Shown one piece after another: positions 24,974 through 60,626 of a stretch of DNA of 64,000 nucleotides; within the stretch, counting starts at the first letter, position 1; each line of letters starts with the position of its first letter. The DNA is taken from assembly GCA_024103355.1 (NCBI GenBank), contig JAGFIU010000043.1, positions 2,102-66,101 of the forward strand, written 5' to 3'. Origin of the DNA: Bacteroidota bacterium (GTDB taxonomy: Bacteria; Bacteroidota; Bacteroidia; NS11-12g; UBA955). A program made the translations under genes and the position numbers. The notes under the pieces were generated by a model. That model made no database searches. It was not told the origin of the DNA and saw only the letters and a program-made list of their open reading frames with translations.

Positions 24974-25691
24974 AAAAGAAATCAGAAGTTTTTTAAGCTC
25001 ACTCATTGCTTATGTAGTGATTGCAGTCTTTTTAATTGTAACCGGTATGTTCACTTGGTTGTTCAAAGACACCAGCGTTCTAGACAGTGGCTATGCAAAC
25101 CTTGACCCACTGTTTTCGATCGCACCGATTATTTTTATCTTTTTGGTTTCAGCAATTACCATGCGTAGTTTTTCTGAAGAGCGCAAGAGCGGCACTATTG
25201 AAACTCTGACCACAAGACCTGTTTCAGATATGTCAATCATAATGGGTAAATATTTTGCAGGACTAACCTTGGTATTATTTTCCATACTTCCAACCCTGCT
25301 CTATTATTACTCCGTAAACAAATTATCTATTAATCCCGAACAGACCGGTATTGACAAAGGAGCAACCTTAGGTTCCTATATCGGCTTATTATTACTTGGG
25401 GCGGTATATGTAGCTATTGGCACATTTGCCTCTGCATTGAGCGACAATCAGATTATTGCCTTTTTATTGTCAATGTTCCTATGCTTCTTTTTCTTCATTG
25501 CATTTGACTTTCTTTCGGATTTAGAGTTTTTGAAAAACTCTGATTTTTCAACAGAATGGCTCGGTATCAACTACCACTATCGTTCAATCAGTAAAGGAGT
25601 AGCAGACACCAGAGATTTAATTTACTTTCTGTCTTTGACCATTTTATTTCTTGGTTTCACTAAATTTATTTTTGGCAGCCGTAAGTGGTAA
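24957..25691 (+). CDS. gldF: ABC-2 type permease, GldF-like
   Basis: 244-aa six-TM ABC-2 permease. It overlaps gldA by 17 nt and gldG by 7 nt. Confidence 0.6.
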   Translation: MWTIYKKEIRSFLSSLIAYVVIAVFLIVTGMFTWLFKDTSVLDSGYANLDPLFSIAPIIFIFLVSAITMRSFSEERKSGTIETLTTRPVSDMSIIMGKYFAGLTLVLFSILPTLLYYYSVNKLSINPEQTGIDKGATLGSYIGLLLLGAVYVAIGTFASALSDNQIIAFLLSMFLCFFFFIAFDFLSDLEFLKNSDFSTEWLGINYHYRSISKGVADTRDLIYFLSLTILFLGFTKFIFGSRKW

Positions 25692-27484
25692 TCAATATGA
25701 GTAAGAAAAGAACACATCGAATTAAGAGTTTAATTGACCTTACGATTGTAATTGCAATCGTTGTGATTGCAAACCTTCTTTCTGCACAGTATTATACCAA
25801 GTTTGACCTTACCAAAGAGAAGCGATACACCTTGAGTGAAACATCCAAAAAACTTGCTAAGAGTGTAAATGACTATATATACATCAAAGTGTATTTGAAT
25901 GGAGAGTTAAGTTCAAAGTTTAAACAACTCAAAAATGCCACATTGGACATGCTGACAAACTTTAGGGAAGCATCCGGGAACAAGATTGAATATGAATTTA
26001 TTGACCCATTTGCAGGCAAGGACAACAAAGAGAAGCAGCAGATTCTACAAGATTTTGAACAAAAAGGCATTCCTCCGTACGATGATGTTGATGATGAAGA
26101 TATAGAATCACAAAAGCGCAATTTGATTATTCCGGGTGCTGAAGTATTTTACGGGACAGGAAAGAGTTTTGTAATCAATCTTCTCAAGACCGAATTGGGA
26201 CAAGCCAATGAAGAAAACATCAACCAATCCATTGAAAATCTAGAATACGAAATAGCACATGCCATTCGCAAATGTAAGGCAGACCAAAGTAAACGTATTG
26301 GATTTATAATAGGTCACGGAGAATTGAACGAACTACAACTGTACGATCTTAAAAAAGAGCTTGGCAGTTTTTATCGTTTGGACAATCTCAATATTGACCT
26401 TCGAGATTCAGCAGCCATTGCACTCTATGCAGACAAATTCACTGAAAATGATGAAGAGAATGCAAAGATTATCCTAAGCGGTTTGCAGAATCGTATTAAT
26501 CAATATGATGCAATTGTAGTTGCCAAGCCCCGTGTCGATTTGACACGTGAAGAAGCATTTCTAATTGACCAGTACATGATGCAAGGTGGCAAAAGCCTAT
26601 GGTTTATTGATGCACTACAAGCTGAAATGGATTCAATGAGCAAAACCGGCAGAATGGTTGCCGTTGATTACCCTTTAGAAAACCTGCGAGAGTTGCTTTT
26701 TCACTACGGAGTTAGAGTGAATGTGGATTTACTGCAAGATCTTCGTCGTTGTAATGACATTGCATTACGCGATCCATATTCCGCCAATAGCTATCGCAAT
26801 TTCCCATGGGTATATTTCCCTGTATTTACCGCACATCCGACATTATCCAAACATCCTATTAACCGTAATATCGAAGGAGTTTGGTCTCAATTTGGTGGAA
26901 CGATTAAGATATTAAACAAGGACAACATAAAGGCAACACCCCTGCTCATTAGTTCTGATTTAACTAAAATTTCCAATGCACCTGCACTCGTTGAGTTCAG
27001 TATTATTGATAAAATACGGATGAATGACAGAACCTTTTTAGCAACTTTTAATTCAGGGCCTCAGGTTGCAGGGGTTTTGTTAGAAGGTACATTCAAAACA
27101 GCCTTTGCACGCAGAAATGTCCGGTCCGATTTACCATTTATAGAAAGTGGAAAAGGCAGTATTATCGTTATTGCAGATGGAGATATTGCCAGGAATCATG
27201 TCAGCAGCCAAGGGGGGTATCTTGAACTTGGAAAGGATTTTATTACAGGAAGATTTTTTGGAAATAAAAAATTCTTGTTGAACTGTTTCGATTACTTACT
27301 TGATGATTCCGGATTAATCGAAATACGCTCTAAAGAAATCATACTGCGTTTGCTTGACAAAGAAAAAGTGAAAGAGGAGCGAACCTATTGGCAATTTTTT
27401 AATCTCGGGTTTCCGGTATTATTAATTCTCTTATTTGGGGTTGTTAATGCCTTGTTGAGAAGAAGAAAATATGCGCACACTTAG
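25685..27484 (+). CDS. gldG: GldG-like ABC-associated gliding motility auxiliary protein
   Basis: 599 aa with an N-terminal TM, a large extracytoplasmic domain and a C-terminal TM (..GFPVLLILLFGVVNALLRRRK). The size and topology match GldG. Confidence 0.6.
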   Translation: MVINMSKKRTHRIKSLIDLTIVIAIVVIANLLSAQYYTKFDLTKEKRYTLSETSKKLAKSVNDYIYIKVYLNGELSSKFKQLKNATLDMLTNFREASGNKIEYEFIDPFAGKDNKEKQQILQDFEQKGIPPYDDVDDEDIESQKRNLIIPGAEVFYGTGKSFVINLLKTELGQANEENINQSIENLEYEIAHAIRKCKADQSKRIGFIIGHGELNELQLYDLKKELGSFYRLDNLNIDLRDSAAIALYADKFTENDEENAKIILSGLQNRINQYDAIVVAKPRVDLTREEAFLIDQYMMQGGKSLWFIDALQAEMDSMSKTGRMVAVDYPLENLRELLFHYGVRVNVDLLQDLRRCNDIALRDPYSANSYRNFPWVYFPVFTAHPTLSKHPINRNIEGVWSQFGGTIKILNKDNIKATPLLISSDLTKISNAPALVEFSIIDKIRMNDRTFLATFNSGPQVAGVLLEGTFKTAFARRNVRSDLPFIESGKGSIIVIADGDIARNHVSSQGGYLELGKDFITGRFFGNKKFLLNCFDYLLDDSGLIEIRSKEIILRLLDKEKVKEERTYWQFFNLGFPVLLILLFGVVNALLRRRKYAHT

Positions 27485-30500: not shown

Positions 30501-31281
30501 TACTATCTGCCATCAAGCGATTGCGTTCATTGAGGAACCAATGGATATAATGGGGTGTTGAGAAGAGATTTTGCAGTTCAAGCACCAAGTCTAAATCTTG
30601 TTGACGATAAGCATCCTGAAATATTTCGCTTATGTCTTGAGTTTTCATTCGTTCTTCAAGCCACAAAGGGATAGGTTTTTCATCTTTTTTATTTTTTCTC
30701 TCTGTTTGAGCAATTCTTAGCAAGTCGTTTGTATGTTTAATATTTTCTAATCCAACCACTGTTCTTCCTGTCTTTGCACCTGCCATATAGATAAACATAT
30801 CGAGATAAGTATCTTCTTCAAAGTCTGCCATATACGGGTCACTTCTAAACTGTAGCGAATTAATCATTACGTCTCTGCTTGCTAAATAAGACCCAATCAC
30901 ATTATTTTGTGGAGGGTCTAAAGGAAATATTTTTTGATAAAAACCCTTGTCTGTATACGTATTAAATGGATAAGCACCAAAATACTCGGTGGCATATTTC
31001 AAATTCATTATTTCATCTAACCAGTTTGTGGGGTTTGATTCTAATGCAATAATATCAGCATGTTTTAGTCCTATAAAAAAAGTATCACTAAGATTAAACG
31101 CAAGTTTGCTGCTCACATGCATTGTTCCGTACAGATATGATTTTTGTCCGGGATTCTGGGGTGAGGTTACCTCCCACAACAAGGACTGATATTTTTTCTC
31201 GCTTGTTTGTGCATTAAGGAAGTCTATCGAATGGCTAAAATAAAATGCAGCTATTGAGAACAGAATAACAATTTTTTTCAT
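27592..31281 (-). CDS. Large secreted protein with an N-terminal TIKI/TraB/GumN-family domain and an unassigned C-terminal region of about 900 aa
   Basis: 1229 aa with a signal peptide. GumN-type motifs are LLWEVTSPQNPGQKSYLYGTMHV and VFAGVGAAHLGGDFGVIEYLRKKGCTVRPV. The rest has no recognised domain. Confidence 0.5.
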   Translation of the reverse strand: MKKIVILFSIAAFYFSHSIDFLNAQTSEKKYQSLLWEVTSPQNPGQKSYLYGTMHVSSKLAFNLSDTFFIGLKHADIIALESNPTNWLDEIMNLKYATEYFGAYPFNTYTDKGFYQKIFPLDPPQNNVIGSYLASRDVMINSLQFRSDPYMADFEEDTYLDMFIYMAGAKTGRTVVGLENIKHTNDLLRIAQTERKNKKDEKPIPLWLEERMKTQDISEIFQDAYRQQDLDLVLELQNLFSTPHYIHWFLNERNRLMADSMFVLMKGHSVFAGVGAAHLGGDFGVIEYLRKKGCTVRPVIFTKTDIAAETKKYYDSLKTNLTLTKQVSPDSQFAINLPAKLYELPYSGTHFLCSEMTNGSFFSVNKIATFSIMSEITPDIYLDKIDSLLFENIPGKILSKQRIKNGVYKGIEVKNRTKSGDLQHYQIFVTPLEIIIFKMGGKGDFIEPWSDSIFSTLKFIDKSKQTEWKRTKYVYGGFSVEMPPVHVLDSDLPISAVYNQPLFQGYDSKTNSLFLLTRNVLIDFYYIEEDNFELERTAEKLAKKHSKQVADKKLGKWQGLPCLDFSLVPKAGESGEITYFRMLISGGFYYLLAAKTHKNKRAANKFFNSFKIEPFENHKPFERFTDTLLYFSTLTSKDINESSARYLGYYETRKDYEDFSKVYIYLSETGERIRVFFEKFHQYTYYPDVDSLFNEIVRKSTKDMTLAVSSQVRFQKDGLHIMDLYLSDTGSMRLIKLRHIIKEGGDAQYVLRTLVDSVHRSSPFIDSFYNSFKPIDSTFGISIFENKGDLFLDDLFSGDSARFNKAISSVEFVKLNKSNIDRVIQIIETYPFREKGQEFVQQILLDKLSELKDDKLIEFAKRLYLNNPNNYPIQLNAIEVICAQKNIKAINALKEIMHEDLPYVMVSDSDIWSPLRNDSMQLWKQMYPQMYDYEHIQEYKSYILGDLSNMLDSGIINGAFYEPFLPKLLEESEFVLKKYLAFEQKNNISKAMDEAVGEADNSYSSPVYNETLIQKYKLLLPQVKNNEVANLVKSYDTSITSEINQIMMVKYQLINKLNPNKVLVDKIASNPKYLFNLYKNMEDIGRLDIIPTKYLDDEMLARITINGTDEFSGSKFDLEKDTFNLISQEQVNSKGKQFRLFYYEIHQYISTKSAESRNFAPKDFQYYALVVVEVRDGKVYPVGNTFQYHVNIDNPERREKYLEELSEEFKVEGRERASAFDVSDNTQWW

Positions 31282-31311
31282 TCTAATTTTTTAAAGTGGC
31301 AAATCTAAATT

Positions 31312-31343
31312 AATAACTGCTTGAAAAACGTCAAGTAGTTATT
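31312..31343 (-). terminator. Possible terminator hairpin after the BspA-like gene
   Basis: Imperfect 13-bp inverted repeat aataactgcttga / tcaagtagttatt with a 6-nt loop. The U-run is weak. Confidence 0.35.
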
Positions 31344-31422
31344 AATTAGTGTATTTAGAATTTAATTTGGTAAAATAGATTATTGAAATACAGAGACATG
31401 AAATTTTGTCATCATCAATCTC

Positions 31423-33753
31423 TTATTCCTTCACAATCTTGTTGACTTGTCCGGCTATGTTTATGAAGTAAATTCCGCTTACTAATCCTGACAAATCAAT
31501 TTCTAGTATTCTTTTTTCTAATTTGCCTTGCATAACCAATCTCCCTTGTACATCGGTAATCTTATATTCCTCTCCTACTTTCCCCTCGATTTTTGTCAAT
31601 CCTGTTGTCGGATTGGGATATATTGTAAATGGTTGGTATAAATTAATCGGAAATTCAACAAATCTTATTGGACTCAACTCACTTTTGCCATCATAATCTA
31701 CCTGGCGAAGGCGATAATAATTTAGTTTCTTTGGGTTGGAATCAACTAATTGATAATAACTCATTGAATAGATTGTTCCTTTTCCTTGAACAATTCCAAT
31801 AGATTCCCAATTTATTCCATCGCTATTTCTCAATACTTCAAAATGACTATTGTTTACCTCTTGAGCAGTTTGCCATGTAAGCTCTACCCTTGTATTACTA
31901 AAGTCTGGCGTTGCCTGAAAATCAATGAGCTCCACAGGCAACGGAACTGGACCACCCCCTATTGCAAAAGGTGAAAAGGCGCCATTGTAGCCAGTATGCG
32001 TCAAAGTTGTCCCACTTGCACTGCCACTGCCCGATGTCGCTATCTCCCATGCACTTATGCCTGAATTGTAGTGGTTGAGTGTGGGTGTTGCCAACAACGC
32101 TGACTCCTCTCCCGAATTCCAATAAAATTTAAAATCTACTCCACTGCCTCCATTCGCACTGGCTTTGTCTATATCCCATGTACGTTTTACGTGAGGGGGT
32201 ATCAATACACTCCCCGTCAATCCATCTTCATAAGCCTCATCCAATATCCTGATACTAAAAACATCGGCAGAACCTGTGTTGTTTTTTATCTCAATAGGAT
32301 TGTATGCACTGTTACCTACAGGGAACAACAAGGTAGCGCCATTAGCCACATTCATCTTGAGTTTACCGGTTCCGGTTGTTTTCACATAACCTGTTCCGAT
32401 ATTGCTTAGTCCGGTCACTGTCAGATTGTAATTTCCTAAGACAATCTTCTTACCCGAATTAATCATATTGATTACTCCCACTGTTCTGTCTTGGTCTAAT
32501 TCCAAATCCCTGACTACAGTACTGTGAAATTTAAAATTATCACCGGATGCAGGTAAGCCTCCCTTGTACCAATTTCCCGACTTTGACCAATCATTGTCGG
32601 TTGTACCTATCCACTCACATGGGCAATTGGAAACATCTTTACCATTATCACTAATCGTCCAACTCTTGGTAGTGGCTAAATAGTCACGAGCAGATTGAGC
32701 ATATGCTGCGTATTTGATACTTGCAGCTCCTAAGGTTATATTGCTTGGAGCTGTACCTCCCGTTGCCCAACCTATCAAGGTAGCTCCATAATTTGAACAA
32801 TCCATTCCTGAATTACTAAACATACTTACTAAACTTGTTACACTTAACAAATTCCAATTACCTAAATTCTGATTGAAATTACTCGCATTATAAAACATAA
32901 AATTCATATTGGTAACCGCGCCCGTACTCCAACTACTTATATTTCCATTGAAAGAACTTGCATTGCGAAACATAGCACTCATATTAGTTACCTTTGACAC
33001 ATCCCAAGAATTCAAATCTTGGTTAAAACTACTAGCATCATTAAACATTGAATTCATATTGGTGACAGAACCCGTACTCCAAGCGTCTATATTTTTATTG
33101 AAAGAACTTGCATTGCGAAACATAGCACTCATATTAGTTACCTTTGACACACCCCAAGAATTCAAATCTTGGTTAAAACTACTAGCATCATTAAACATAT
33201 AACTCATATCGGTCACAGAGTCAGTTTTCCAACTGCTTATATTTCCATCGAAGGAACTTGCTGAAGAAAACATAGAACTCATATTAGTTACCTTCGACAC
33301 ATCCCAAGAATTCAAATTTTGATTAAAATTACTTGCAATATAAAACATAGCATTCATATTGATTACTGAGCCCGTATTCCAATTGCTAATATCCGCATTG
33401 AAGGAACTTGCTGAAGAAAACATAGAGCTCATATCGGTTATACCTTCTGTATGCCAATTCCAATTTGCGCTTGAACCTTTTAGATTTGTGCAAGATGCAA
33501 ACATATTTGAAAGGTTTGTAACTTTTGCCAAAACCGGAGTATCTGTGGCGGTAATATCCATTCGCGAGCATCCATAAAAAGATTTCACAAAACTCGACCA
33601 TGTACTATCTCCCCATTGGGTGATTAGCTTGAGCGAATCTTTCTGTCCTCCATTATTAAAATAGATTTGCGGGAAAGACCCGTGAATCTCAACCTTATAT
33701 AATTTATCCGCGGTTCCAGTTGTAACAGTGAACGGGCCCGAGCCGGATAACAC
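31423..33753 (-). CDS. DUF285/BspA-type 26-residue-repeat surface protein with a T9SS type-A C-terminal sorting domain. The ORF as called starts at an internal GTG.
   Basis: About 10 tandem 26-aa repeats (..SVTNMSAMFRNASSFNQDLNSWDVSKV..). The C-terminal Por-secretion tail is YPNPTTGLTKIEG...GIYFINIAGQVNKIVKE. The same frame stays open upstream to an in-frame TAA at 33865..33867. Confidence 0.7.
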   Translation of the reverse strand: MLSGSGPFTVTTGTADKLYKVEIHGSFPQIYFNNGGQKDSLKLITQWGDSTWSSFVKSFYGCSRMDITATDTPVLAKVTNLSNMFASCTNLKGSSANWNWHTEGITDMSSMFSSASSFNADISNWNTGSVINMNAMFYIASNFNQNLNSWDVSKVTNMSSMFSSASSFDGNISSWKTDSVTDMSYMFNDASSFNQDLNSWGVSKVTNMSAMFRNASSFNKNIDAWSTGSVTNMNSMFNDASSFNQDLNSWDVSKVTNMSAMFRNASSFNGNISSWSTGAVTNMNFMFYNASNFNQNLGNWNLLSVTSLVSMFSNSGMDCSNYGATLIGWATGGTAPSNITLGAASIKYAAYAQSARDYLATTKSWTISDNGKDVSNCPCEWIGTTDNDWSKSGNWYKGGLPASGDNFKFHSTVVRDLELDQDRTVGVINMINSGKKIVLGNYNLTVTGLSNIGTGYVKTTGTGKLKMNVANGATLLFPVGNSAYNPIEIKNNTGSADVFSIRILDEAYEDGLTGSVLIPPHVKRTWDIDKASANGGSGVDFKFYWNSGEESALLATPTLNHYNSGISAWEIATSGSGSASGTTLTHTGYNGAFSPFAIGGGPVPLPVELIDFQATPDFSNTRVELTWQTAQEVNNSHFEVLRNSDGINWESIGIVQGKGTIYSMSYYQLVDSNPKKLNYYRLRQVDYDGKSELSPIRFVEFPINLYQPFTIYPNPTTGLTKIEGKVGEEYKITDVQGRLVMQGKLEKRILEIDLSGLVSGIYFINIAGQVNKIVKE

Positions 33754-33867
33754 TCCTGACCAACCATTGTTAGAGGCATTCCCTACCTCTTCCCAATAGA
33801 CCTTAAAGTTATAACTGCTTCCTCTCGTAGGGATAATTATCTGTCCACTACTGTTGGCTCGCCATTA

Positions 33868-33975
33868 TACAATAAACGGATCTAATGCCCTTGCATCTGA
33901 TAGTTTTAGTAACAAGAGCAATAACAATCCAAATCGAAAAAAAGTGCGATGATTAAATAACCAAATTATTTTCAT
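33868..33975 (-). other. 36-codon signal-peptide ORF in frame with the BspA-like CDS and separated from it by a single TAA
   Basis: MKIIWLFNHRTFFRFGLLLLLLLKLSDARALDPFIV, then TAA, then the same frame continues as WRANSSGQIIIPTRGSSYNFKVYWEEVGNASNNGWSG into the 31423..33753 ORF. Confidence 0.45.
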
Positions 33976-34138
33976 AAAGTCTATATTTTAGGATTGCGCA
34001 AATATAATCTCACTTTTATTACACAATATTTTATAAATACTTTTTTTTAATACCTTTTTAGTCATCCCAATAGTTAAATTAATAAAACGAGTCCAAACAT
34101 AGCCAAGCATAGTTAGAGCAGTTATGCTTTATTGAAAA

Positions 34139-34176
34139 AGAGCCATTAGGGAAGCTTCCCTAATGGCTCTTTTTTA
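34139..34176. terminator. Bidirectional rho-independent terminator
   Basis: Perfect 32-nt palindrome agagccattagggaagcttccctaatggctct, flanked by A5 upstream and T6 downstream. Confidence 0.75.
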
Positions 34177-34196
34177 TTCTTTTATTTATAAATGAA

Positions 34197-34319
34197 TTAT
34201 TCCTTCACAATCTTGTTGACTTGTCCGGCTATGTTTATGAAGTAAATTCCGCTTACCAATCCTAATAATTCAACAAAAGCTATCGTAATGTTTGTGCATG
34301 AAATATGGAAAAACAAACC
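34197..34319 (-). pseudogene. Orphan 3' remnant of a T9SS type-A CTD gene (last 40 codons plus stop, no start codon)
   Basis: Translates as GLFFHISCTNITIAFVELLGLVSGIYFINIAGQVNKIVKE*. Bases 34197..34256 are identical to 31423..31482, the 3' end of the BspA-like gene. An upstream in-frame TAA lies at 34320..34322 and no ATG is present. Confidence 0.55.
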
Positions 34320-34368: not shown

Positions 34369-37300
34369 GTGATGGCTCTAAGAAAAACATTTATTTTGTT
34401 ACTATTATCAAGTATTCTTATTGGCATCAGCCGGCAAGCAAAGGCACAGTGCGTTGCTGATTACAGCATCATTTCTCGCAGTTGCGACAAAGACACCGTT
34501 CATTTTTCCTTTACCGGCAACGGGAAAAAGTTTCAATGGGACTTTGATGATCCTGCTTCTGGTGTTAGAAACTCTGACACTCTCAGCAATCCAAAACATC
34601 AATTTACTTCAGCAGGTTCCTATTATGTCAGATTGGTTGTTTTTGACTCCGCATGCACTGATACCGTTACCAAATTAGTACAGATATACACAAATCCAAC
34701 CATTGCTTATTCATACTCTAATAATTGTAAAAATCTGATTTCCAAATACAATTCTTCGATTACCATTGATTCGGTTGATTCCATCAGACAGATTTATTGG
34801 TTTTTGAACAATGTACTTATTGATTCAGGAAGCAACATCTCTCACATATTTTCAGACACTGGGATAATAAACCTATCCACAGTTGTTGTTACCGGGGAGG
34901 GATGTACTGACAGCTTTAATAAACCTATAAAGGTATTCCCGGCCCCTGTTATAGAATCAGACAAGTCAAGTGCATGTGAAGATAAGGATATTAATTTCAA
35001 TCTCAAATCCGGTTTTGTACCTGAAATTAAAAATTACAAATGGAATTTCGGTGACGGCTCAATCAGCAGTCAAGCCTCACCTAAATATCAATTCTCTAAT
35101 GGTGGGCTTTACCCTGTTTCGCTTTTGCTAACCTATTCAGACAGCAGCTCCTGTTTATCAAACGCTGATTCAATCAAGATAACAAACAAACCCAATACCG
35201 CATTTCGTCTTTTGAGTGATAGCGTTCAATGTTTTCAAGGAAATCAATTTTGTTTTGAATTTTTGGGCAGGGAAAAGAATTTGAGTTATCGTTCTGTCAT
35301 ATTTGGTGATGGCAATAAGAACAACACTTTCCCATTGACAGACAGCACACTTTATTACTCATACAACGACAGTTTAGGCAGAGTTTATTCAATAACTTAT
35401 GAAGCTATTGACTCAAACGGTTGTTCAAACACAACAACCATTGACAGCTTAATAACACTTCACCCTAAGATCAATTTATTATTTGGTTACAGTAGAACTC
35501 TTGGATGTTTCAGCACTCCTGTATCATTCACAAATTACAGCAACACCACACCTCCTAGCATTATAAAATTCAAATGGGATTTTGGTGACAGCACCCTTGA
35601 CTCTACATCGTGGAATCCAAGTCATACTTATACACAAAACGGAATATTCTCGGTTTCGCTCGAAGTTCTGAGTGACAAGGGTTGTCAAGTGAAAACAACT
35701 TACAACAAAATCATCGAAAATGTAAACTTCAAAGCAGATACTCACTTGGACAGTGTCATTAGTTTTTGTAGAAGCGACAACAAATTTTTCTATAAACAAA
35801 CCCCGATACTCGGTGCCAGCGTACGATGGTATTGGGGAGATGGTGACACCTCTTACACATGGAGTGTAAACAAACATTACAATAACCCGGGTACATATTA
35901 TCCAAGAATAAGAATCTGGGCTTCTAACTGTATTGTTGATACTGTTTTCGATACGATAACCATTACAGGGCCTCGTGCTTTAGCAAGCAATATAATCAAC
36001 CGATATCAATGTCAAATCAAAGACACTATATACTTTACAAACAGCAGTTTATTCGATTTTAACAAAAGCAGAAGTACATTTTGGGATTTTGGTGATATTT
36101 ATGCACCAAGTTGTACGACAAACCTCGCAAAGGGTATCAATGTAGGTATGAATTGTCGATATAGCACCGACAGCATTTTAACCCAACACTATTACACCCC
36201 CGGCAAAGAGCAGTGTTACTATACAAAATTGGTTGTAAGTGATTCCATAATAGGTTGTGCGGACTCAACGTATATAAGCCTTCCGCTAACAGCACCCAAA
36301 GCGGATATAGACCTCTTAGCCACTCCTCCTCGATTAGGAATGAGTCTTAACAAAAATAGAACTTGCCTGAGTGAAGAAGGAGACTATGTCAATGTCTTAG
36401 TTCTAAACTTAAATAACACACAGCCTGCTTGTGCCAGACAACGATGGTGGGTGATGTGGGACTCTCTTGGTGCACGCCAATCAGGCAGCTTTGATTCACA
36501 TTGGGAATCTTATGCCGACTCGCATTACTATAGTTTTGCAAATAAACCTGCCGACACAAATGGATATGTAACTATCGGATTGATTATTGAGAATGGTAGC
36601 GACTCTAGCAACAACGTTTGCAGAGATACGGCATGGTATCACCATTTTTTGAAATTTGAAATTTATGACCCTGAATTTGTTTCAGACTATGACTCAACTG
36701 TACAGTACTGCAAAGGTTCAACTTTTACTTTTCGTTTAAAGGATACAACACAAAAAGCACTTTCTAAAGTAATATGGGATTGGGCTGACGGGAGTTTGTC
36801 TCAACTAACATCAGGAAACCTTACGGCACCTATCAAACACACATTCTATAAGCCCGGAATATACAAAGTTATTGTAACTGTGATTACTGACTCCGGTTGT
36901 ATTGCAACTTATTCAAAGAGAATCGAAGTAGGCTATAACATCAATTTTGGCGTAAGTAATGTTTATTCGTCTTCGGGGCAACGATTTTGTGAGAATACCA
37001 AAATACCCTTATCGTTTGATGTCGGTTATATTGGCACTACACGCAATGAATGGCATGATACCATGCGTTTGAAAGCCGGTAAAGAAAAAATCAGGTGGGA
37101 TATGGGAGACGGTCTTGGTTATCAGGACTTGGGATTTCCGCCTTTTTCCTATCAATACAACAAAGGAGGTTATTATAAAATATCCTTGATAGCTGAAGAC
37201 AGTGTAGGCTGTATGGATACAATGACAGTTCCCGATGCCATTCTTATTACTCATATCAAGTCAAAAATTACAACCTCACAAGACAGCTTTGTTTGTGCAC

Positions 37301-40300
37301 AAGGGATTCAATTCAATTCTAATGTTTCTCAATATGACAGCACAAGCACAGTTCCTCAAGGCAGTGCGGAAACTATTACCTATCGTTGGGAATTTGCTCC
37401 GGGCATACCCTACAACACGTTATCCGATCCTTTTGTTCTGTTGAAAGAAGGTGATTACAATGTTAAACTAAAGGTTACCAATACAACGGGATGTGAAGAC
37501 TCCTCTTTTAAAAGTATAAGCATCATCGGTCCAAAAGCAGAGTTTGTATTTCTTTCCGACTCTATCGGTTGTCAACCCCTGGAGGTTACTTTCAAAAACA
37601 AAAGTAAAGGTGCCACAAATTATATTTGGAGATTCAAAGACAGCAGTGGAAATGTGTTGAACACCGTCTCCTCCGGCAATGTTAGCTTTACTTATCCTCA
37701 GTTTGGAAAATATTATCCGTCTCTTACTGTTCAAGGAACTTATATCAAAAATGGAGTAAGTATTACCTGTTCCAATACTTTTCCTGACTCTATTCCTAAG
37801 CCATTTAGGGAAATTACAGTATTGGAAATCCCCAAACCTGATTTCACCCATGTTACCAACTGTTTCAGCAAAACCACACAGTTTACTAACAAGACTTATA
37901 CAGGTAGTTCAACTCTGAACTCTGTTTATTGGGATTTTGGAGACGGCAGCACTTCTACTGACAACAATCCTTCTCATCAATACAGTGATACCGGAAGATA
38001 TACAATAACATTAATTGCTTATTCTGCAAACGGCTGCTCAGATACATTAAAACGAATGATTGTCATATCCCCTACTCCAATCCCCAATTTTAATTTTACA
38101 AACCAATGTGCCGGAGTTCCCATTCAATTCAAAGATTCAACAAAAACGTTTAATGATGTTATTGTCAATTGGAGCTGGAGTTTTGGCGATAGCACTTTCA
38201 GCAATCTGAATATTGAAAATAAAAGCTATGCAAAAGGAGGTTCTTACAATGTTAAACTGGTCGTTACCAATATGGCAGGTTGTTCCGATTCTGTTTCTAA
38301 AATAGTAAAGGTTCATTATAAACCTCTTGTTAATTTCTCGGTTCCACATACTTGTTCCCATCAAGACTTGGCAATTTCAAATCTGAGCAGTGTTGCAGAC
38401 ACTACACTCTCTTATCAATGGAATTTTGCAGACGGGACATATTCTACAGATTTTGCTCCCTCAAAATCATATACAAATAACGGCAATTACAAAATCAAAC
38501 TGCAAGCATTGAGTGGCTTTGGCTGCGTTGATTCTATTACAAAAAACATTCAAATAAACCCAACGCCTTATAGCAATTTTAATATCAATAGTGCTACACA
38601 GTGTTTTGCCGAACATGAGTTTGTGTTTAGCAATACAACATCACTTGTATCAGGTACATTTTCTTCACTCTGGAAGTTTGGAGATGGGAATACGAGCGTT
38701 ATCAAATCTCCCACACATCAATATACAAGCATAGGCTCCTATGCCATTGACTTGATTACCACCTCTGATTTTGGTTGTAAAGACACCATTTCTAAAAGCG
38801 TGACAGTGCAATCCAATCCATCAGCCAATTTCACTATTGACAAAGTTCAACAATGTTTGCTCGGCAATGCCTTTACTTTTACTGATATTACTGGTACTCC
38901 TAACAGAACATGGCAAATCAAAGGAATTAACTATGCAGATAGTGTACTCAAATACAGTTTTGTTGACACCGGAGTTCACACAATTCGCATGGTTGCCATA
39001 TCAACAAATACTTGTACTGATACAATCTATCGAACGGTAGAAGTGCTTCCCATGCCGATTGCAAAAATTGGTGTAAACAGCCCGGGACAATGCGTAAACA
39101 ACCAAAATTTCTCCTTTTCCGACTTAACAACACTTGCCAAATATCCATCATGGACTCCTTCTTGGGATTTCGGAAACGGGAAAACCGCTGGAATTTCCAA
39201 CCCGACCACAAGTTATGACACTGCCGGATTTTATACTGTTACGCTAAAAGTGCTTTCAAGCAAAGGTTGTGCTGATACCACTCAATACAAAGTTGAGGTT
39301 TATTCTAAACCAACACCTGATTTTGCTATCAATGATGACGAGCAATGTCAATTGAACAACTTGTTTGTGTTCACAAATAAGTCAAAAGTTGCAAAAGGCT
39401 CACTCTCTTATCAATGGACATTTGGTGATGGGGCAAGCAGTATTCTAACCAATCCAAAACACAGCTATACACTAAAAGGAAATTTACCTGTTAAACTCAT
39501 TACGACCAGTTCCTTAGGTTGTGTGGACTCGATTTCGCGAACCATTACTTTGCGAGCAAAACCAACCGCTTCAATAGCAGTAAACAAAGCACAACAATGT
39601 ATCAATCCCAATTTGTTCACTTTCAGCAGTAAGAGTCAAAGCAATGAGGGTTCTTTTGTTTCTTACGAATGGAACATTCCTTCACAGCCAATAAGCAGTT
39701 TGCAAACCAATGACACATTTTTCTATAGTTTTCCAAACTATGGAGCATTCCCTGTTCATCTCTATGTTACAACGAGTTTCGGCTGCGCTGATTCTACTCA
39801 AATGTCTGTTGAAGTTTATCCAAAACCCAAATCTTTGTTTTCTATCAATGATTCTACACAATGCCTTAACAAACAACTATTTTCTTTCAGCAACTTAAGC
39901 ACAATTCCCTACGGTACATTGAGCTATCAATGGACTTTTGGAGATGGCAAAGGCTCTACCGCTAAACATCCTTCTTATACCTTCAACAACGCTGATACTT
40001 TTATTGTAAAAATGATTGCAACCTCAAACAATAATTGCAAGGATACTACCTCTTTGCCCGTGATTGTATATCCCAAACCCTTTGTTAATTTTAACATCAA
40101 CGACTCAGGACAGTGTCTGACAGGTAATCTCTATGAATTAAACAATCTTAGCAACATTTCTTATGGCACTTTATCATATTTCTGGGATTTAGGAAATGGT
40201 AAAACATCAACTCAAAAAGACACACAAATCAGCTACAATGCTTATGGTACATATAAGATTTTATTACAATCAACCTCTAACTTTGGTTGTATAGATAGCG

Positions 40301-41796
40301 TTTCGTATAAAGTAAAAGTTTATCCAAAGCCTACACCTGACTTTGCTATCAACAAAGAGAAACAATGTTTGAATGAGAACCAATATAAAATCAGCTCTCG
40401 TTCCAATATTGCTTATGGTACTTTGACCTATCAATGGCAATTAGGTGATGGCGCAACAGCAAGCGGTGACTCTATAATTCATCATTACAACAATATAGGC
40501 ACCTATACTATCAAAATGGTTTCAACCTCAAACTTTGGTTGTGTGGATTCAAGCAGTAAAGAAATCAGGATTTGGGCAAATCCTCAAAGTGCTTTTGCCG
40601 CCAACAATCCTGCACAATGTATTAATACACAAGATTTTCAATTTATCAATCAATCCCGCATTAATGAAGGCGCTATCGATTCACAGACATGGAATTTTGG
40701 CAACGGAAATTTCAGTAACTCACAATCTCCAAACCAATTTTTCAAAAGTACCGGACGTTATCGAATCAGTCTGATATCTCATTCTGACAGCGGCTGTTTG
40801 GATTCTGCTGTCAACTATATTGATATTTATCCAAAACCCGAAGCCGCTTTTGATATCAATGACACATCACAGTGTTTATATACCAACCTATTTGAGTTTA
40901 CTGACCAATCAAAAGACACATTGAACCTCATCAATTATCGTTGGATATTAGGTAATGACAGTTCTGCTAACTCAAAAAATACATCCTTTAAATTTAATAA
41001 AATTGGTTTTCACGACATAGAACATCAAGTAATATCAGAATTGGGTTGTGCAGACACCATAATCAGAAAGATATATGTAAAGCCAATGCCTGACCCGAGT
41101 TTTGAAAAATTGGATATTTATTATTGTAATAACAAAGGGCCATTTTCATTCAACACAACCACACCGGGTGGAACTTTCTACGGTAAAAACATAGAAAACA
41201 ATCTATATATGCCTCAGATATTGTGGAGAGACACCATCGAATATAAAGTAACCGTAGATGGATGTTTGGATTCAAGTTCTCAGGTTACACAGGTCTATCC
41301 GGCTCCTTCTGTCTTTCTCGGCTCAGACACCATGCTTTGCAAATATGAATCATTGGAATTTGATGTTAGCTTTTGGAACAGCACTTACGAATGGCAGGAT
41401 CGAAATAAAGAGGCAAAATACCTAGTTAAACGTCCCGGATTATACAAGGTTACCGTAACCAATTTTTGCGGTTCTGTTTCGGATTCTGTTTATGTAGAAT
41501 ATGGGGAATATAATTGCCGATTATATCTGCCTACATCTTTTAGCCCAAACAAAGACGGGCTTAATGATTATTACAACCCCATTACGTATGATGTTGAAAG
41601 TTTTCATATCCAGATTTTCAACCGCTGGGGGCAAATGGTTTATGACGGCACACAAAACGACCCCGGATGGGATGGCTCCTATATGGGAATGCCTTGTGAA
41701 CCCGGAATGTTTATTGTCCAAGTTTCGTATTCATACAAATTCAAAAACGAATACCGAAATATTACAGAAAGCTCCCCACTATACTTGATGAAATAA
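34369..41796 (+). CDS. Giant cell-surface protein with about 23 tandem PKD domains and a T9SS type-B (gliding motility-associated) C-terminal domain. SprB/adhesin-like.
   Basis: 2475 aa with a signal peptide. The W-x-F-G-D-G...N-P-x-H-x-Y...G-x-Y PKD signature recurs about every 90 aa. The C-terminal motif SFSPNKDGLNDYY..IQIFNRWGQMVY..WDG matches the type-B CTD. The probable true start is ATG 34372. Confidence 0.8.
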   Translation: MMALRKTFILLLLSSILIGISRQAKAQCVADYSIISRSCDKDTVHFSFTGNGKKFQWDFDDPASGVRNSDTLSNPKHQFTSAGSYYVRLVVFDSACTDTVTKLVQIYTNPTIAYSYSNNCKNLISKYNSSITIDSVDSIRQIYWFLNNVLIDSGSNISHIFSDTGIINLSTVVVTGEGCTDSFNKPIKVFPAPVIESDKSSACEDKDINFNLKSGFVPEIKNYKWNFGDGSISSQASPKYQFSNGGLYPVSLLLTYSDSSSCLSNADSIKITNKPNTAFRLLSDSVQCFQGNQFCFEFLGREKNLSYRSVIFGDGNKNNTFPLTDSTLYYSYNDSLGRVYSITYEAIDSNGCSNTTTIDSLITLHPKINLLFGYSRTLGCFSTPVSFTNYSNTTPPSIIKFKWDFGDSTLDSTSWNPSHTYTQNGIFSVSLEVLSDKGCQVKTTYNKIIENVNFKADTHLDSVISFCRSDNKFFYKQTPILGASVRWYWGDGDTSYTWSVNKHYNNPGTYYPRIRIWASNCIVDTVFDTITITGPRALASNIINRYQCQIKDTIYFTNSSLFDFNKSRSTFWDFGDIYAPSCTTNLAKGINVGMNCRYSTDSILTQHYYTPGKEQCYYTKLVVSDSIIGCADSTYISLPLTAPKADIDLLATPPRLGMSLNKNRTCLSEEGDYVNVLVLNLNNTQPACARQRWWVMWDSLGARQSGSFDSHWESYADSHYYSFANKPADTNGYVTIGLIIENGSDSSNNVCRDTAWYHHFLKFEIYDPEFVSDYDSTVQYCKGSTFTFRLKDTTQKALSKVIWDWADGSLSQLTSGNLTAPIKHTFYKPGIYKVIVTVITDSGCIATYSKRIEVGYNINFGVSNVYSSSGQRFCENTKIPLSFDVGYIGTTRNEWHDTMRLKAGKEKIRWDMGDGLGYQDLGFPPFSYQYNKGGYYKISLIAEDSVGCMDTMTVPDAILITHIKSKITTSQDSFVCAQGIQFNSNVSQYDSTSTVPQGSAETITYRWEFAPGIPYNTLSDPFVLLKEGDYNVKLKVTNTTGCEDSSFKSISIIGPKAEFVFLSDSIGCQPLEVTFKNKSKGATNYIWRFKDSSGNVLNTVSSGNVSFTYPQFGKYYPSLTVQGTYIKNGVSITCSNTFPDSIPKPFREITVLEIPKPDFTHVTNCFSKTTQFTNKTYTGSSTLNSVYWDFGDGSTSTDNNPSHQYSDTGRYTITLIAYSANGCSDTLKRMIVISPTPIPNFNFTNQCAGVPIQFKDSTKTFNDVIVNWSWSFGDSTFSNLNIENKSYAKGGSYNVKLVVTNMAGCSDSVSKIVKVHYKPLVNFSVPHTCSHQDLAISNLSSVADTTLSYQWNFADGTYSTDFAPSKSYTNNGNYKIKLQALSGFGCVDSITKNIQINPTPYSNFNINSATQCFAEHEFVFSNTTSLVSGTFSSLWKFGDGNTSVIKSPTHQYTSIGSYAIDLITTSDFGCKDTISKSVTVQSNPSANFTIDKVQQCLLGNAFTFTDITGTPNRTWQIKGINYADSVLKYSFVDTGVHTIRMVAISTNTCTDTIYRTVEVLPMPIAKIGVNSPGQCVNNQNFSFSDLTTLAKYPSWTPSWDFGNGKTAGISNPTTSYDTAGFYTVTLKVLSSKGCADTTQYKVEVYSKPTPDFAINDDEQCQLNNLFVFTNKSKVAKGSLSYQWTFGDGASSILTNPKHSYTLKGNLPVKLITTSSLGCVDSISRTITLRAKPTASIAVNKAQQCINPNLFTFSSKSQSNEGSFVSYEWNIPSQPISSLQTNDTFFYSFPNYGAFPVHLYVTTSFGCADSTQMSVEVYPKPKSLFSINDSTQCLNKQLFSFSNLSTIPYGTLSYQWTFGDGKGSTAKHPSYTFNNADTFIVKMIATSNNNCKDTTSLPVIVYPKPFVNFNINDSGQCLTGNLYELNNLSNISYGTLSYFWDLGNGKTSTQKDTQISYNAYGTYKILLQSTSNFGCIDSVSYKVKVYPKPTPDFAINKEKQCLNENQYKISSRSNIAYGTLTYQWQLGDGATASGDSIIHHYNNIGTYTIKMVSTSNFGCVDSSSKEIRIWANPQSAFAANNPAQCINTQDFQFINQSRINEGAIDSQTWNFGNGNFSNSQSPNQFFKSTGRYRISLISHSDSGCLDSAVNYIDIYPKPEAAFDINDTSQCLYTNLFEFTDQSKDTLNLINYRWILGNDSSANSKNTSFKFNKIGFHDIEHQVISELGCADTIIRKIYVKPMPDPSFEKLDIYYCNNKGPFSFNTTTPGGTFYGKNIENNLYMPQILWRDTIEYKVTVDGCLDSSSQVTQVYPAPSVFLGSDTMLCKYESLEFDVSFWNSTYEWQDRNKEAKYLVKRPGLYKVTVTNFCGSVSDSVYVEYGEYNCRLYLPTSFSPNKDGLNDYYNPITYDVESFHIQIFNRWGQMVYDGTQNDPGWDGSYMGMPCEPGMFIVQVSYSYKFKNEYRNITESSPLYLMK

Positions 41797-58463: not shown

Positions 58464-59051
58464 ATGAAAACAAACCTATCCAAACACTTAAAAACTAAAA
58501 TAATATCTCAATTAACAATGTTAATCCTATTATTTTCCATTTGTCCAAATCTAAATGCACAAAAAACCAGATGGCCTTTTCGAGTTGAAGGTAGTGACAA
58601 TGGTAGAGGCGTACCTAAAATATGGTCATACGGATATAATCCCAACGCAATTACTCCGTATAAAGACAGAAAAGAAAATAAAAAAATTAAGCCGGGTAAA
58701 AAACCCGCAGTACTTCGATTCAAGTTCGAAAAATTTGAAGCATGCCAAGTAGTGGTAACAGAAACCTATAATCCCGGAGCTATAACAAAAGTAGAAATTG
58801 GATATAAACCATCCGGTAAAGGAAGAACACTAAAAAAGGTCGTATGGGAAGGAACAGCACAAGCCACGGTGTCAAAATATACGGTAAAATATTTTCATTT
58901 TGATATGACTCCTAACATTACTGATGTTTGGCTTTATGTTGATTATTCAGCAATCGATGGGGTAAATCAATTCGGAGGAGTTTGCCTTACAAACTCGACA
59001 GCAGATTATTATCCAAGAATTAATATCCCAAAAAGAAAAATATTTACTTAA
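58464..59051 (+). CDS. Hypothetical secreted protein. It may be the N-terminal part of the downstream PD40/OmpA gene (same frame, single TAA between them).
   Basis: 195 aa with a signal peptide (..LTMLILLFSICPNLNAQ). The frame stays open from 59052 to the next ORF. Confidence 0.4.
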   Translation: MKTNLSKHLKTKIISQLTMLILLFSICPNLNAQKTRWPFRVEGSDNGRGVPKIWSYGYNPNAITPYKDRKENKKIKPGKKPAVLRFKFEKFEACQVVVTETYNPGAITKVEIGYKPSGKGRTLKKVVWEGTAQATVSKYTVKYFHFDMTPNITDVWLYVDYSAIDGVNQFGGVCLTNSTADYYPRINIPKRKIFT

Positions 59052-59144
59052 AATGTAACCAAGCTAAACGATAACATCAACGGAAAAAAAAATCCTTCAG
59101 GGTTAATCTTAACCGTTGACAACAAATACCTGTTCTTTTCTAAC

Positions 59145-60626
59145 ATGGATAAAAACTACGAACAGATATATAGGGCTGAGCTCAATGAAGACAAACAAAT
59201 TATCAAAGTTGTTCCAAGCGAATTCAACTTACCTAAGGGAAAGTCAAGAACCAGCGGTTTGATTGGAATCAGTCAAGATAACAATATTGCTTATGTTTCT
59301 GACATGAAACTAACCCGTTTTGAATTCTATAAGACATATTTAGGTAAATCAATATTTGGAAAAGCAAAGTGGAAATATGAAAAGGAGAAAATAAAAAACT
59401 ATAAAAACGGAGGCATATTCATTGACTATGTGATGAGCTATGACGGGAATGTCGTTATCTTGGGTTATAAAGAAAAAAGTGATATGGGCGACCTCTATAA
59501 AGAAGACCTCTATGTATCAATAAAAGATGCAAAAGGAAATTGGTCTCCTTTTAAACACATGGGATTTGACATTAACACATTGGGAACAGAAACACCATGT
59601 TATCTCGCACCGGATAATAAGACACTTTACTTTTCCTCCTCCGGAAGAATCGGTTTTGGACAAGGCGATATTTATATTACTCGTAGGCTTGATGACAGTT
59701 GGACAAATTGGAGTGAACCACTCAATCTCGGCAATTCTGTGAATTCTTTTGAACACGAAAACAGTTTTGTCATTGATGGACAGTCAGGCAGAATCTATTT
59801 TATTCGCTGGGAAGATGATGTACACACCAATATCTATACATCAGAGTTATATGTAGAACCTCCTGCACCCATTGAGCAACCTCCTTTAGAAATTCCTACA
59901 ACAGATTCTATTCCGGAGCAAGATACTGTTGCTATTGTCCAGATAACACCTCCGCCTACACCCGAGCCTGTTATGGAAGAAGAAATCATGCCTGAACCGG
60001 TGATAATTATCAGAGGTATTACAACCAACAAAAAAAATGGCGAGATAATTCAGGCCGAAATCAAATATTATGATATCTATACAGGGCAAGTAATTGGGAA
60101 AGTAATCTCTAACGCAGAAACCGGTGAATATTCTCTCATACTACGCAAAGGAATTTATTATTCATTTGATGCAAATGCAGATAACTTTATTGGCGAAAGC
60201 CATAGTCTGAACACTACAGAACTGAAGGATTTCGGTAAAATCGAACAAAATTTTGAACTTACTCCAATAGAGAAAGATGTTACAATAAGATTAAACAATA
60301 TTTTCTTTGAAACAGATAAGTCAGAACTCTTACCGGCTTCTTTTACGGAACTAGACAAGTTGTTAGGTTTGTTAAATAAAAATTCCAATATCAAGATTGA
60401 AATATCAGGTCACACAGATGATGTAGGTTCTGAAAGTTACAACCAAAAACTGTCTGAGCGCAGGGCAAATGCTGTGAGAGATTACCTCATTTCAAAAGGT
60501 ATAAAAGCGGAAAGAATTGTTGCAAAAGGATATGGTGAAGCTAAGCCGGTGGTTGAGAATAACAGTACGGAGAATCGTGCTCTGAACAGAAGGGTAGAAT
60601 TTACGATATTGGAAATAGGAAAATAG
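59145..60626 (+). CDS. OmpA-family protein: PD40 (TolB-like) repeats, a carboxypeptidase-regulatory-like domain and a C-terminal OmpA peptidoglycan-binding domain
   Basis: 493 aa with PD40-like TLYFSSSGRIGFGQGDIYI and an OmpA domain (NIFFETDKSELL...ISGHTDDVGSESYNQKLSERRANAVRDYL). The called ORF has no signal peptide. Confidence 0.7.
   Translation: MDKNYEQIYRAELNEDKQIIKVVPSEFNLPKGKSRTSGLIGISQDNNIAYVSDMKLTRFEFYKTYLGKSIFGKAKWKYEKEKIKNYKNGGIFIDYVMSYDGNVVILGYKEKSDMGDLYKEDLYVSIKDAKGNWSPFKHMGFDINTLGTETPCYLAPDNKTLYFSSSGRIGFGQGDIYITRRLDDSWTNWSEPLNLGNSVNSFEHENSFVIDGQSGRIYFIRWEDDVHTNIYTSELYVEPPAPIEQPPLEIPTTDSIPEQDTVAIVQITPPPTPEPVMEEEIMPEPVIIIRGITTNKKNGEIIQAEIKYYDIYTGQVIGKVISNAETGEYSLILRKGIYYSFDANADNFIGESHSLNTTELKDFGKIEQNFELTPIEKDVTIRLNNIFFETDKSELLPASFTELDKLLGLLNKNSNIKIEISGHTDDVGSESYNQKLSERRANAVRDYLISKGIKAERIVAKGYGEAKPVVENNSTENRALNRRVEFTILEIGK

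Follow-up and report, generated by a model that had tools for sequence, protein, structure and literature searches.

T9SS substrates require a Sec signal peptide, which takes them to the periplasm, and a CTD, which takes them across the outer membrane (PMC12618676). The BspA-family/DUF285 T9SS type-A proteins of the Bacteroidota are the described proteins closest to the gene analyzed here, which has their repeats, their CTD and the same layout as its relatives P0061 and P0013. It differs from them in that a TAA at codon 37 severs the signal peptide from the body of the protein. The gene lies on the minus strand near the middle of the window, by which we mean the whole 64,000-nucleotide stretch of DNA that was analyzed; the DNA comes from a MAG of an uncultured member of the Bacteroidota.

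Three other kinds of system offer points of comparison. As in nonsense pseudogenes that are masked by a downstream start, a stop occupies a site where homologs have a sense codon, homology continues in the same frame on both sides of it and the CDS has been made to begin at the next start codon of that frame. Nothing here is unusual for that class, except that the base call comes from one consensus. The locus also resembles cases of programmed read-through or recoding, where an in-frame stop is followed by a long, intact and conserved ORF in the same frame. Finally, as in slipped-strand phase variation, of which the pentamer repeats within the signal-peptide region of Neisseria opa genes are an example, a surface protein is encoded here with a repeat tract (T7) among its signal-peptide codons. 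We regard the event itself as an ordinary one, in which a T9SS BspA-like cargo gene either lost its function to a single-base stop or owes that stop to one wrong base call, and was afterwards annotated incorrectly from an internal GTG.

Anatomy of the interrupted gene

On the minus strand, the ATG at 33975-33973 starts a 36-codon stretch, MKIIWLFNHRTFFRFGLLLLLLLKLSDARALDPFIV, that ends at an in-frame TAA. Beyond this TAA (33867-33865), the same frame runs for 813 codons without a stop, through the GTG at 33753, to the TAA at 31425-31423 (Table 1). An earlier note on this DNA had proposed that the internal TAA parts a 36-codon signal peptide from its body and that the frame stays open into a 776-aa DUF285/T9SS-CTD ORF, and both points were confirmed. 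Base composition alone would give an open stretch of 36 codons with a chance of ∼8%; the signal-peptide ORF is nevertheless more than a chance ORF, because a family motif is split by the TAA and a promoter box lies upstream of the ATG. The two ORFs, one for the signal peptide and one of 776 aa, are a single T9SS cargo gene cut by an in-frame TAA.

Table 1. Coordinates of the interrupted gene, its signals and repeats, and a second interrupted gene in the window
Feature	Position	Strand	Remarks
Whole interrupted gene	31423..33975	-	850 codons counting the internal TAA; signal peptide, PF[IV]xxW module, DUF285/PARCEL repeats, unannotated middle region, T9SS type-A CTD
Codons 1-36	33868..33975	-	Sec-type signal peptide plus LDPFIV, the first residues of the mature module
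T7 homopolymer (A7 on the plus strand)	33937..33943	-	Within the signal-peptide codons, in frame
In-frame TAA, codon 37	33865..33867	-	Next base T (UAAU)
Stretch of 37 codons ahead of the annotated GTG	33754..33864	-	Encode the module core: W38, IIIPT, YNFKVYWEE
776-aa ORF from the internal GTG	31423..33753	-	As in GenBank MCO6495494.1
DUF285 repeat DNA	32809..33457	-	75/150-nt periodicity, exact 46-55-nt copies
Own 3' end of the gene	31414..31499	-	Last 25 CTD codons plus stop; copy one of the 86-nt direct repeat
Terminator-like hairpin beyond the stop codon of the gene	31308..31347	-	17-pair stem, listed on the plus strand only
Bacteroidota -7 promoter box, TATATTTG	33999..34006	-	Perfect fit to TAnnTTTG / TAHHTTTG
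Hairpin just downstream of the relic stop codon	34133..34176	-	Perfect 20-bp stem with T tracts
Relic second copy of the gene's 3' end	34188..34273	-	Upstream of the promoter; 91% nt identity
Gene for an OmpA-like envelope protein that has a signal peptide	58464-60626	+	Split by a TAA at 59049-59051

The 36-codon peptide has a basic n-region (K2, H9, R10 and R14), a Leu-rich h-region of 11 residues (15-25) with a mean Kyte-Doolittle value of 2.6, and A-R-A at residues 28-30, with cleavage predicted after residue 30. Downstream of the TAA there is no hydrophobic segment. Hydropathy never exceeds 0.9 in this part of the protein, and the GTG-start ORF has neither a hydrophobic N-terminal segment nor a signal peptide, in agreement with the earlier statement that it has no export signal of its own. 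The signal peptide is therefore encoded but is not contiguous with the mature protein, because the TAA at 33865-33867 intervenes.

The joined protein scores 307.9 bits against PF03382 (DUF285; Pfam cutoff 25) and 102.3 bits, in six stretches, against TIGR02167 (PARCEL; NCBIfam cutoff 30). At the C-terminus, residues 785-848 match PF18962 (Por_Secre_tail) with E = 5e-11, and the TIGR04183 sorting domain reaches 40.6 bits (cutoff 23). A middle region, residues ∼450-780 (window ∼31640-32630), separates the DUF285 repeats from the CTD; it reads CPCEWIGTTDNDWS ... YYRLRQVDYDGKSELSPI and is strongly conserved in three related proteins (P0005, P0061 and P0013). It has no significant Pfam match, the best being a sub-threshold hit to Ig_J (E = 0.0055). 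Further cargo genes of the CTD or CHU_C type adjoin the locus (41811-46112 and 34372-41796), which suggests that the host has a functioning T9SS; no core T9SS genes were identified within the 64-kb window.

GenBank describes the locus differently. The protein MCO6495494.1 (“BspA family leucine-rich repeat surface protein”, from a 78.9-kb contig) is exactly the 776-aa product of the GTG-start ORF, which means that the TAA is present in the deposited record. The entry is presented as a complete protein and is not marked as a pseudogene. Missing from it are the first 74 codons of the gene, and with them the signal peptide and the invariant residues of the module that follows the signal peptide; among the codons left out of the CDS are those from 33754 to 33864 on the minus strand. 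The 776-aa CDS is an artefact of ORF calling. MCO6495494.1 is what is left, after N-terminal truncation, of an 850-codon gene, and in its annotated form it is not exportable. Catalogues of T9SS cargo and surface proteins that are drawn from such MAG annotations will consequently include dead genes.

Homology across the stop and signals for the start

That the two pieces belong together is shown by a motif that bridges the TAA. The mature protein begins with an N-terminal module, PF[IV]T[TV]W[KR]...ITIPT...YNYxVDW, of which PFI lies before the stop and the Trp after it. We scanned genomes with the post-stop part of the module as query and inspected each of the 55 loci found codon by codon. In 55 of 55, the frame is open and a sense codon stands at the position of the TAA, and in ∼20 of them the module follows directly behind a signal peptide, as it does here. 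A metagenome scan with the same query gave 46 further related loci, all at ≤52% identity; the count of sense codons rests on the 55 genome loci and not on these. Neither scan (55 + 46 loci) returned a locus above 52% identity or a close ortholog. Formal alignment of the module shows W38 and P49 to be invariant and F34, I48, G52, Y55 and W61 to be conserved at ≥90%, and the product of the GTG start lacks all seven of these residues.

No Pfam or NCBIfam model matches this module (residues 31-74, window 33754-33885, extending to ∼33570). Its consensus, PF[IV]TTWKT...ITIPT...YNYxVDW...FPQIYFNN, stands ahead of DUF285 repeats in many genomes (loci L001-L101), where it is placed either directly behind the signal peptide or internally. 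The hosts of the module are labelled Bacteroidota, Patescibacteria/CPR, Campylobacterota, Nitrospirales, KSB1, Gammaproteobacteria and others. Within the window there are no paralogs of the module; only a relic of 25 CTD codons was found.

Full-length relatives give the same picture. P0061 (46% identity) and P0013 (40%) have the same architecture, with the signal peptide continuous with the module. Codons 1-36 of the window gene align with the signal peptide and PF[IV]T of its homologs. The closest relative, P0005, is 63% identical over 820 aligned positions with no frameshift, and it has Glu at the site of the TAA (PFIAEWRA, against PFIV*WRA in the window, the asterisk marking the stop). The correspondence continues on the far side, where P0005 reads PFIAEWRADNNG against PFIV*WRANSSG in the window and, over a longer stretch, PFIAEWRADNNGDIIIPT against PFIV*WRANSSGQIIIPT. 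By hand count from the alignment, 29 of the 37 residues encoded between the TAA and the GTG (residues 38-74) are identical to P0005; at ∼78%, this exceeds the 63% average of the gene. A further homolog search for Logan fragments of the 5' end of the gene gave nothing above 58% identity. The change is most simply explained as GAA to TAA at codon 37, that is, one G-to-T substitution on the coding strand. The GAA is taken from a probable paralog of 63% identity, and in the wider family the residue preceding the invariant Trp is mostly T and sometimes V, I, L, K or F.

P0005 is MCO6495825.1, a protein of 774 aa from an 87.5-kb contig. Its accession is 331 numbers from that of MCO6495494.1, and on this ground we rejected the idea that it is an ortholog from another species; it is most likely a paralog in the same MAG. 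Its annotated start, MFSGTPFIAEW, likewise leaves it without a signal peptide. Either this start has been miscalled, or P0005 is a second copy disrupted at the junction of signal peptide and module.

The signals for expression also point to the ATG. The -7 consensus of Bacteroidota promoters, TANNTTTG, has been refined to TAHHTTTG, and adenines at -12 and -13 have a role in initiation (PMC6847099). At the present locus, a -7 box (34006-33999) ends 23 nt upstream of ATG 33975, and six other window genes that lead operons have such a box 18-34 nt upstream of their starts. The background frequency of the box is 0.68 per kb per strand, and none occurs within 120 nt of GTG 33753. The ATG is preceded by A at each of -11 to -14, whereas the GTG has G, T, G and T at -3, -6, -12 and -13. 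The -7 box and the A-rich leader thus serve ATG 33975 and not the internal GTG. A scan for sigma-70 promoters yielded 10 sites against 12.9 expected and was uninformative for this phylum, so the -7 box was used instead. The hairpin at 34133-34176 is a terminator that insulates the promoter of the gene from upstream transcription, and the inverted repeat at 31308..31347, to judge by its sequence, may also act as a terminator for the minus-strand gene. We also considered reinitiation at the ATG that overlaps the stop (TAATG) and rejected it, since this ATG is out of frame and opens an ORF of only five codons.

The earlier note had argued that the two pieces are one gene because T9SS cargo needs a signal peptide. 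Homology across the TAA and the placement of the promoter and start signals lead to the same conclusion by other routes. The comparison with relatives that it had suggested came out in favor of a sense codon, both in the 55 genome loci and in the closest full-length proteins.

Origin of the internal TAA

Why, then, does a TAA stand at codon 37? The earlier note had offered a fresh nonsense mutation, a sequencing error and a regulated or read-through stop. These proved to be the right options, with nonsense mutation first, sequence error second and read-through far behind. An altered genetic code can be set aside: of the 37 large ORFs in the window, 27 terminate with TAA, seven with TAG and three with TGA.

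A functional stop, at which read-through or recoding (through a UAA-suppressing tRNA or a leaky context, for instance) would yield a little full-length protein under regulation, would account for the intact ORF beyond the TAA. It could also draw on the presence of two in-frame TAAs in 64 kb, both at Glu codons, and on the in-genome paralog P0005, which is also annotated without a signal peptide. The properties of the stop nevertheless make this very improbable. Unlike the signals of programmed read-through, it is the main genuine terminator of ordinary genes in the window, and it is followed by U. In E.coli, UAAU is among the most efficient contexts for termination. The RNA downstream of the TAA folds no better than shuffled sequence (minimum free energy z = -1.0), no Rfam element lies near the stop (sub-threshold hits only, all on the terminator hairpin) and the 64-kb window contains no tRNA genes. 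The stop is also not conserved, being found in 0 of 55 homologous loci, among relatives that in no case examined exceed 63% identity. At the second site, 59049, a strain of 99.97% identity has GAA, which argues that neither stop is a conserved feature. In a more specific version, the two TAA-at-Glu codons (33865 and 59049), each within an otherwise intact gene for an envelope protein with a signal peptide, would be inefficiently read as sense codons in this lineage, perhaps through a UAA-reading tRNA-Glu variant. This strikes us as scarcely credible, and nothing supports it; if it were true, TAA decoding would provide tunable low-level expression of envelope proteins, and P0005 would be a third case.

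Phase variation was considered as well. Surface-protein genes are commonly phase-variable, and this gene has a T7 tract in its signal-peptide codons, an A8 run (34041-34048) in its promoter region and long internal repeats, so the locus might be one that switches via the T7 tract or the repeats and is at present OFF. We judge this highly unlikely. The lesion is an in-frame substitution 70 nt downstream of the T7 tract, and not a frameshift as slipped-strand variation would produce; the tract itself is in frame. A point nonsense mutation has no fast mechanism of reversion, and no inverted repeats of an invertible promoter flank the promoter.

There remain a real mutation and an error in the consensus. 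To compare the window with other assemblies of the same population, we used seven SRA runs assembled by Logan, which were reached through the neighboring genes; the runs are SRR23890175, SRR25844856, SRR25844866, SRR25844865, SRR25844851, SRR13799152 and SRR11182811. Together, 14 Logan contigs match 57.3 kb of the window (99.96-100% identity), and none of them spans 31059-34226 (∼3.2 kb), which is the sole internal stretch of the window left uncovered. A single MAG consensus is thus the source of the TAA at 33865, and mutation and consensus error are not separable from the sister assemblies. One contig, SRR23890175_636165, ends at ∼34227, inside the 86-nt relic repeat, and the k=31 assemblies break here because of exact 46-60-nt repeats in and around the gene. 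The exact products of the 776-aa ORF, P0004, P0005, the TraB-like neighbor and the 36-aa ORF are likewise found in no other assembly on record.

Elsewhere in the window, the background between it and the sister assemblies is ∼1 difference per 4 kb, and at some of the differing sites two to four independent samples share a variant that the window does not have. About 14 sites are possibly window-specific, comprising nine nonsynonymous and three synonymous differences, with the rest intergenic or an indel. The 9:3 split is near the ratio expected without selection and fits either very recent mutations or errors. One of the differences between assemblies is a TCG at 26743-26745 that is absent from two independent Logan assemblies, an in-frame indel polymorphism in the gene for a GldG-like ABC auxiliary protein (25685..27484).

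The comparison also brought out a second interrupted gene. The OmpA-like gene is split into products of 195 aa (58464..59051) and 493 aa (59145..60626, same frame), and neither half is on record elsewhere. The Logan contig SRR23890175_636165 (L106), 99.97% identical to the window, has GAA (Glu) at 59049 and a single gene of 720 aa. Two further G-to-A differences (D to N and E to K) lie within 37 nt of 59049, and this same-strand cluster, 59049-59085, looks error-like. The joined OmpA-like protein has only sub-threshold matches, to the CHU_0125 and PorE families via its OmpA domain.

If codon 37 is likewise a consensus error, then the organism has GAA there and makes an intact exported protein of 850 aa. 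The gene is otherwise perfectly intact, and the only other broken gene in the covered 57.3 kb also has TAA where GAA is found elsewhere, with three same-strand G-to-T/A changes crowded into 37 nt. At both sites, the change to TAA is G:C to T:A, a type associated with oxidative DNA damage, and the products of neither TAA allele were found in other assemblies. Against this, substitution errors are rare in a short-read consensus, and a k-mer assembler adopts an error only when several reads share it. Elsewhere, the window departs from the Logan contigs in ways that resemble ordinary strain variation (the in-frame 3-nt indel and the sites supported by several samples), and the absence of the allele elsewhere weighs little because repeat-induced breaks left the region of the gene unassembled there. 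We consider a consensus error unlikely, but give it appreciable weight.

The interpretation that we find probable is that the locus is a recent nonsense pseudogene or null allele, in which the TAA would be real in the DNA, the ancestral codon GAA and the function lost. That the same assembly contains another derived nonsense allele, at 59049, counts for this reading too. The lesion would be recent, because the 813 codons after it are still open and residues 38-74 are still ∼78% identical to P0005. In its intact form, the gene would have encoded a BspA-like surface protein carried by Sec across the inner membrane and then by the T9SS across the outer membrane. The G-to-T change on the coding strand (plus-strand position 33867) would have turned codon 37, most probably GAA, into TAA. 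Transcription would still start from the -7 box at 34006-33999 and translation from ATG 33975; the ribosomes would terminate after 36 codons and leave a signal peptide with no body attached. A protein re-initiated at GTG 33753 would carry no signal peptide and would begin 38 residues into the module; it would stay in the cytoplasm and reach neither the periplasm nor the T9SS. Whichever the cause, two GAA-to-TAA interruptions in 64 kb flag this MAG for its consensus accuracy or its pseudogene load.

Repeats and turnover at the locus

The earlier note had also called the locus unstable, pointing to nearby 7-T homopolymers and to highly repetitive DNA inside the gene. A T7 tract and such repeats are indeed present, but neither is the cause of the interruption, which is an in-frame substitution. 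What had gone unseen is a rearrangement scar at the locus. The last 25 CTD codons and the stop form one copy of an 86-nt direct repeat with a 60-nt exact core (31423-31482). The second copy, upstream of the promoter, encodes ...LVSGIYFINIAGQVNKIVKE followed by a stop, with 88% aa identity over the 25 codons; it is followed by its own terminator hairpin and lies 95 nt from a divergent gene for a 2475-aa PKD protein. This relic is probably what remains of an upstream tandem paralog that has been almost wholly deleted, and the same 86-nt repeats could mediate the loss, by loop-out, of the whole present gene.

Compared with the homopolymers, the scar is better evidence for a gene family in turnover, and a redundant paralog together with a deleted tandem copy fits such a family. 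The locus may then serve as an example of fast turnover in a repetitive surface-protein family, with duplication, deletion scars and nonsense alleles side by side. On the downstream side, Logan contigs end at 31058 and 30302, inside the TraB-like gene and at points where the window has no repeat; these ends may be due to structural differences between strains in the neighborhood of the BspA-like gene.
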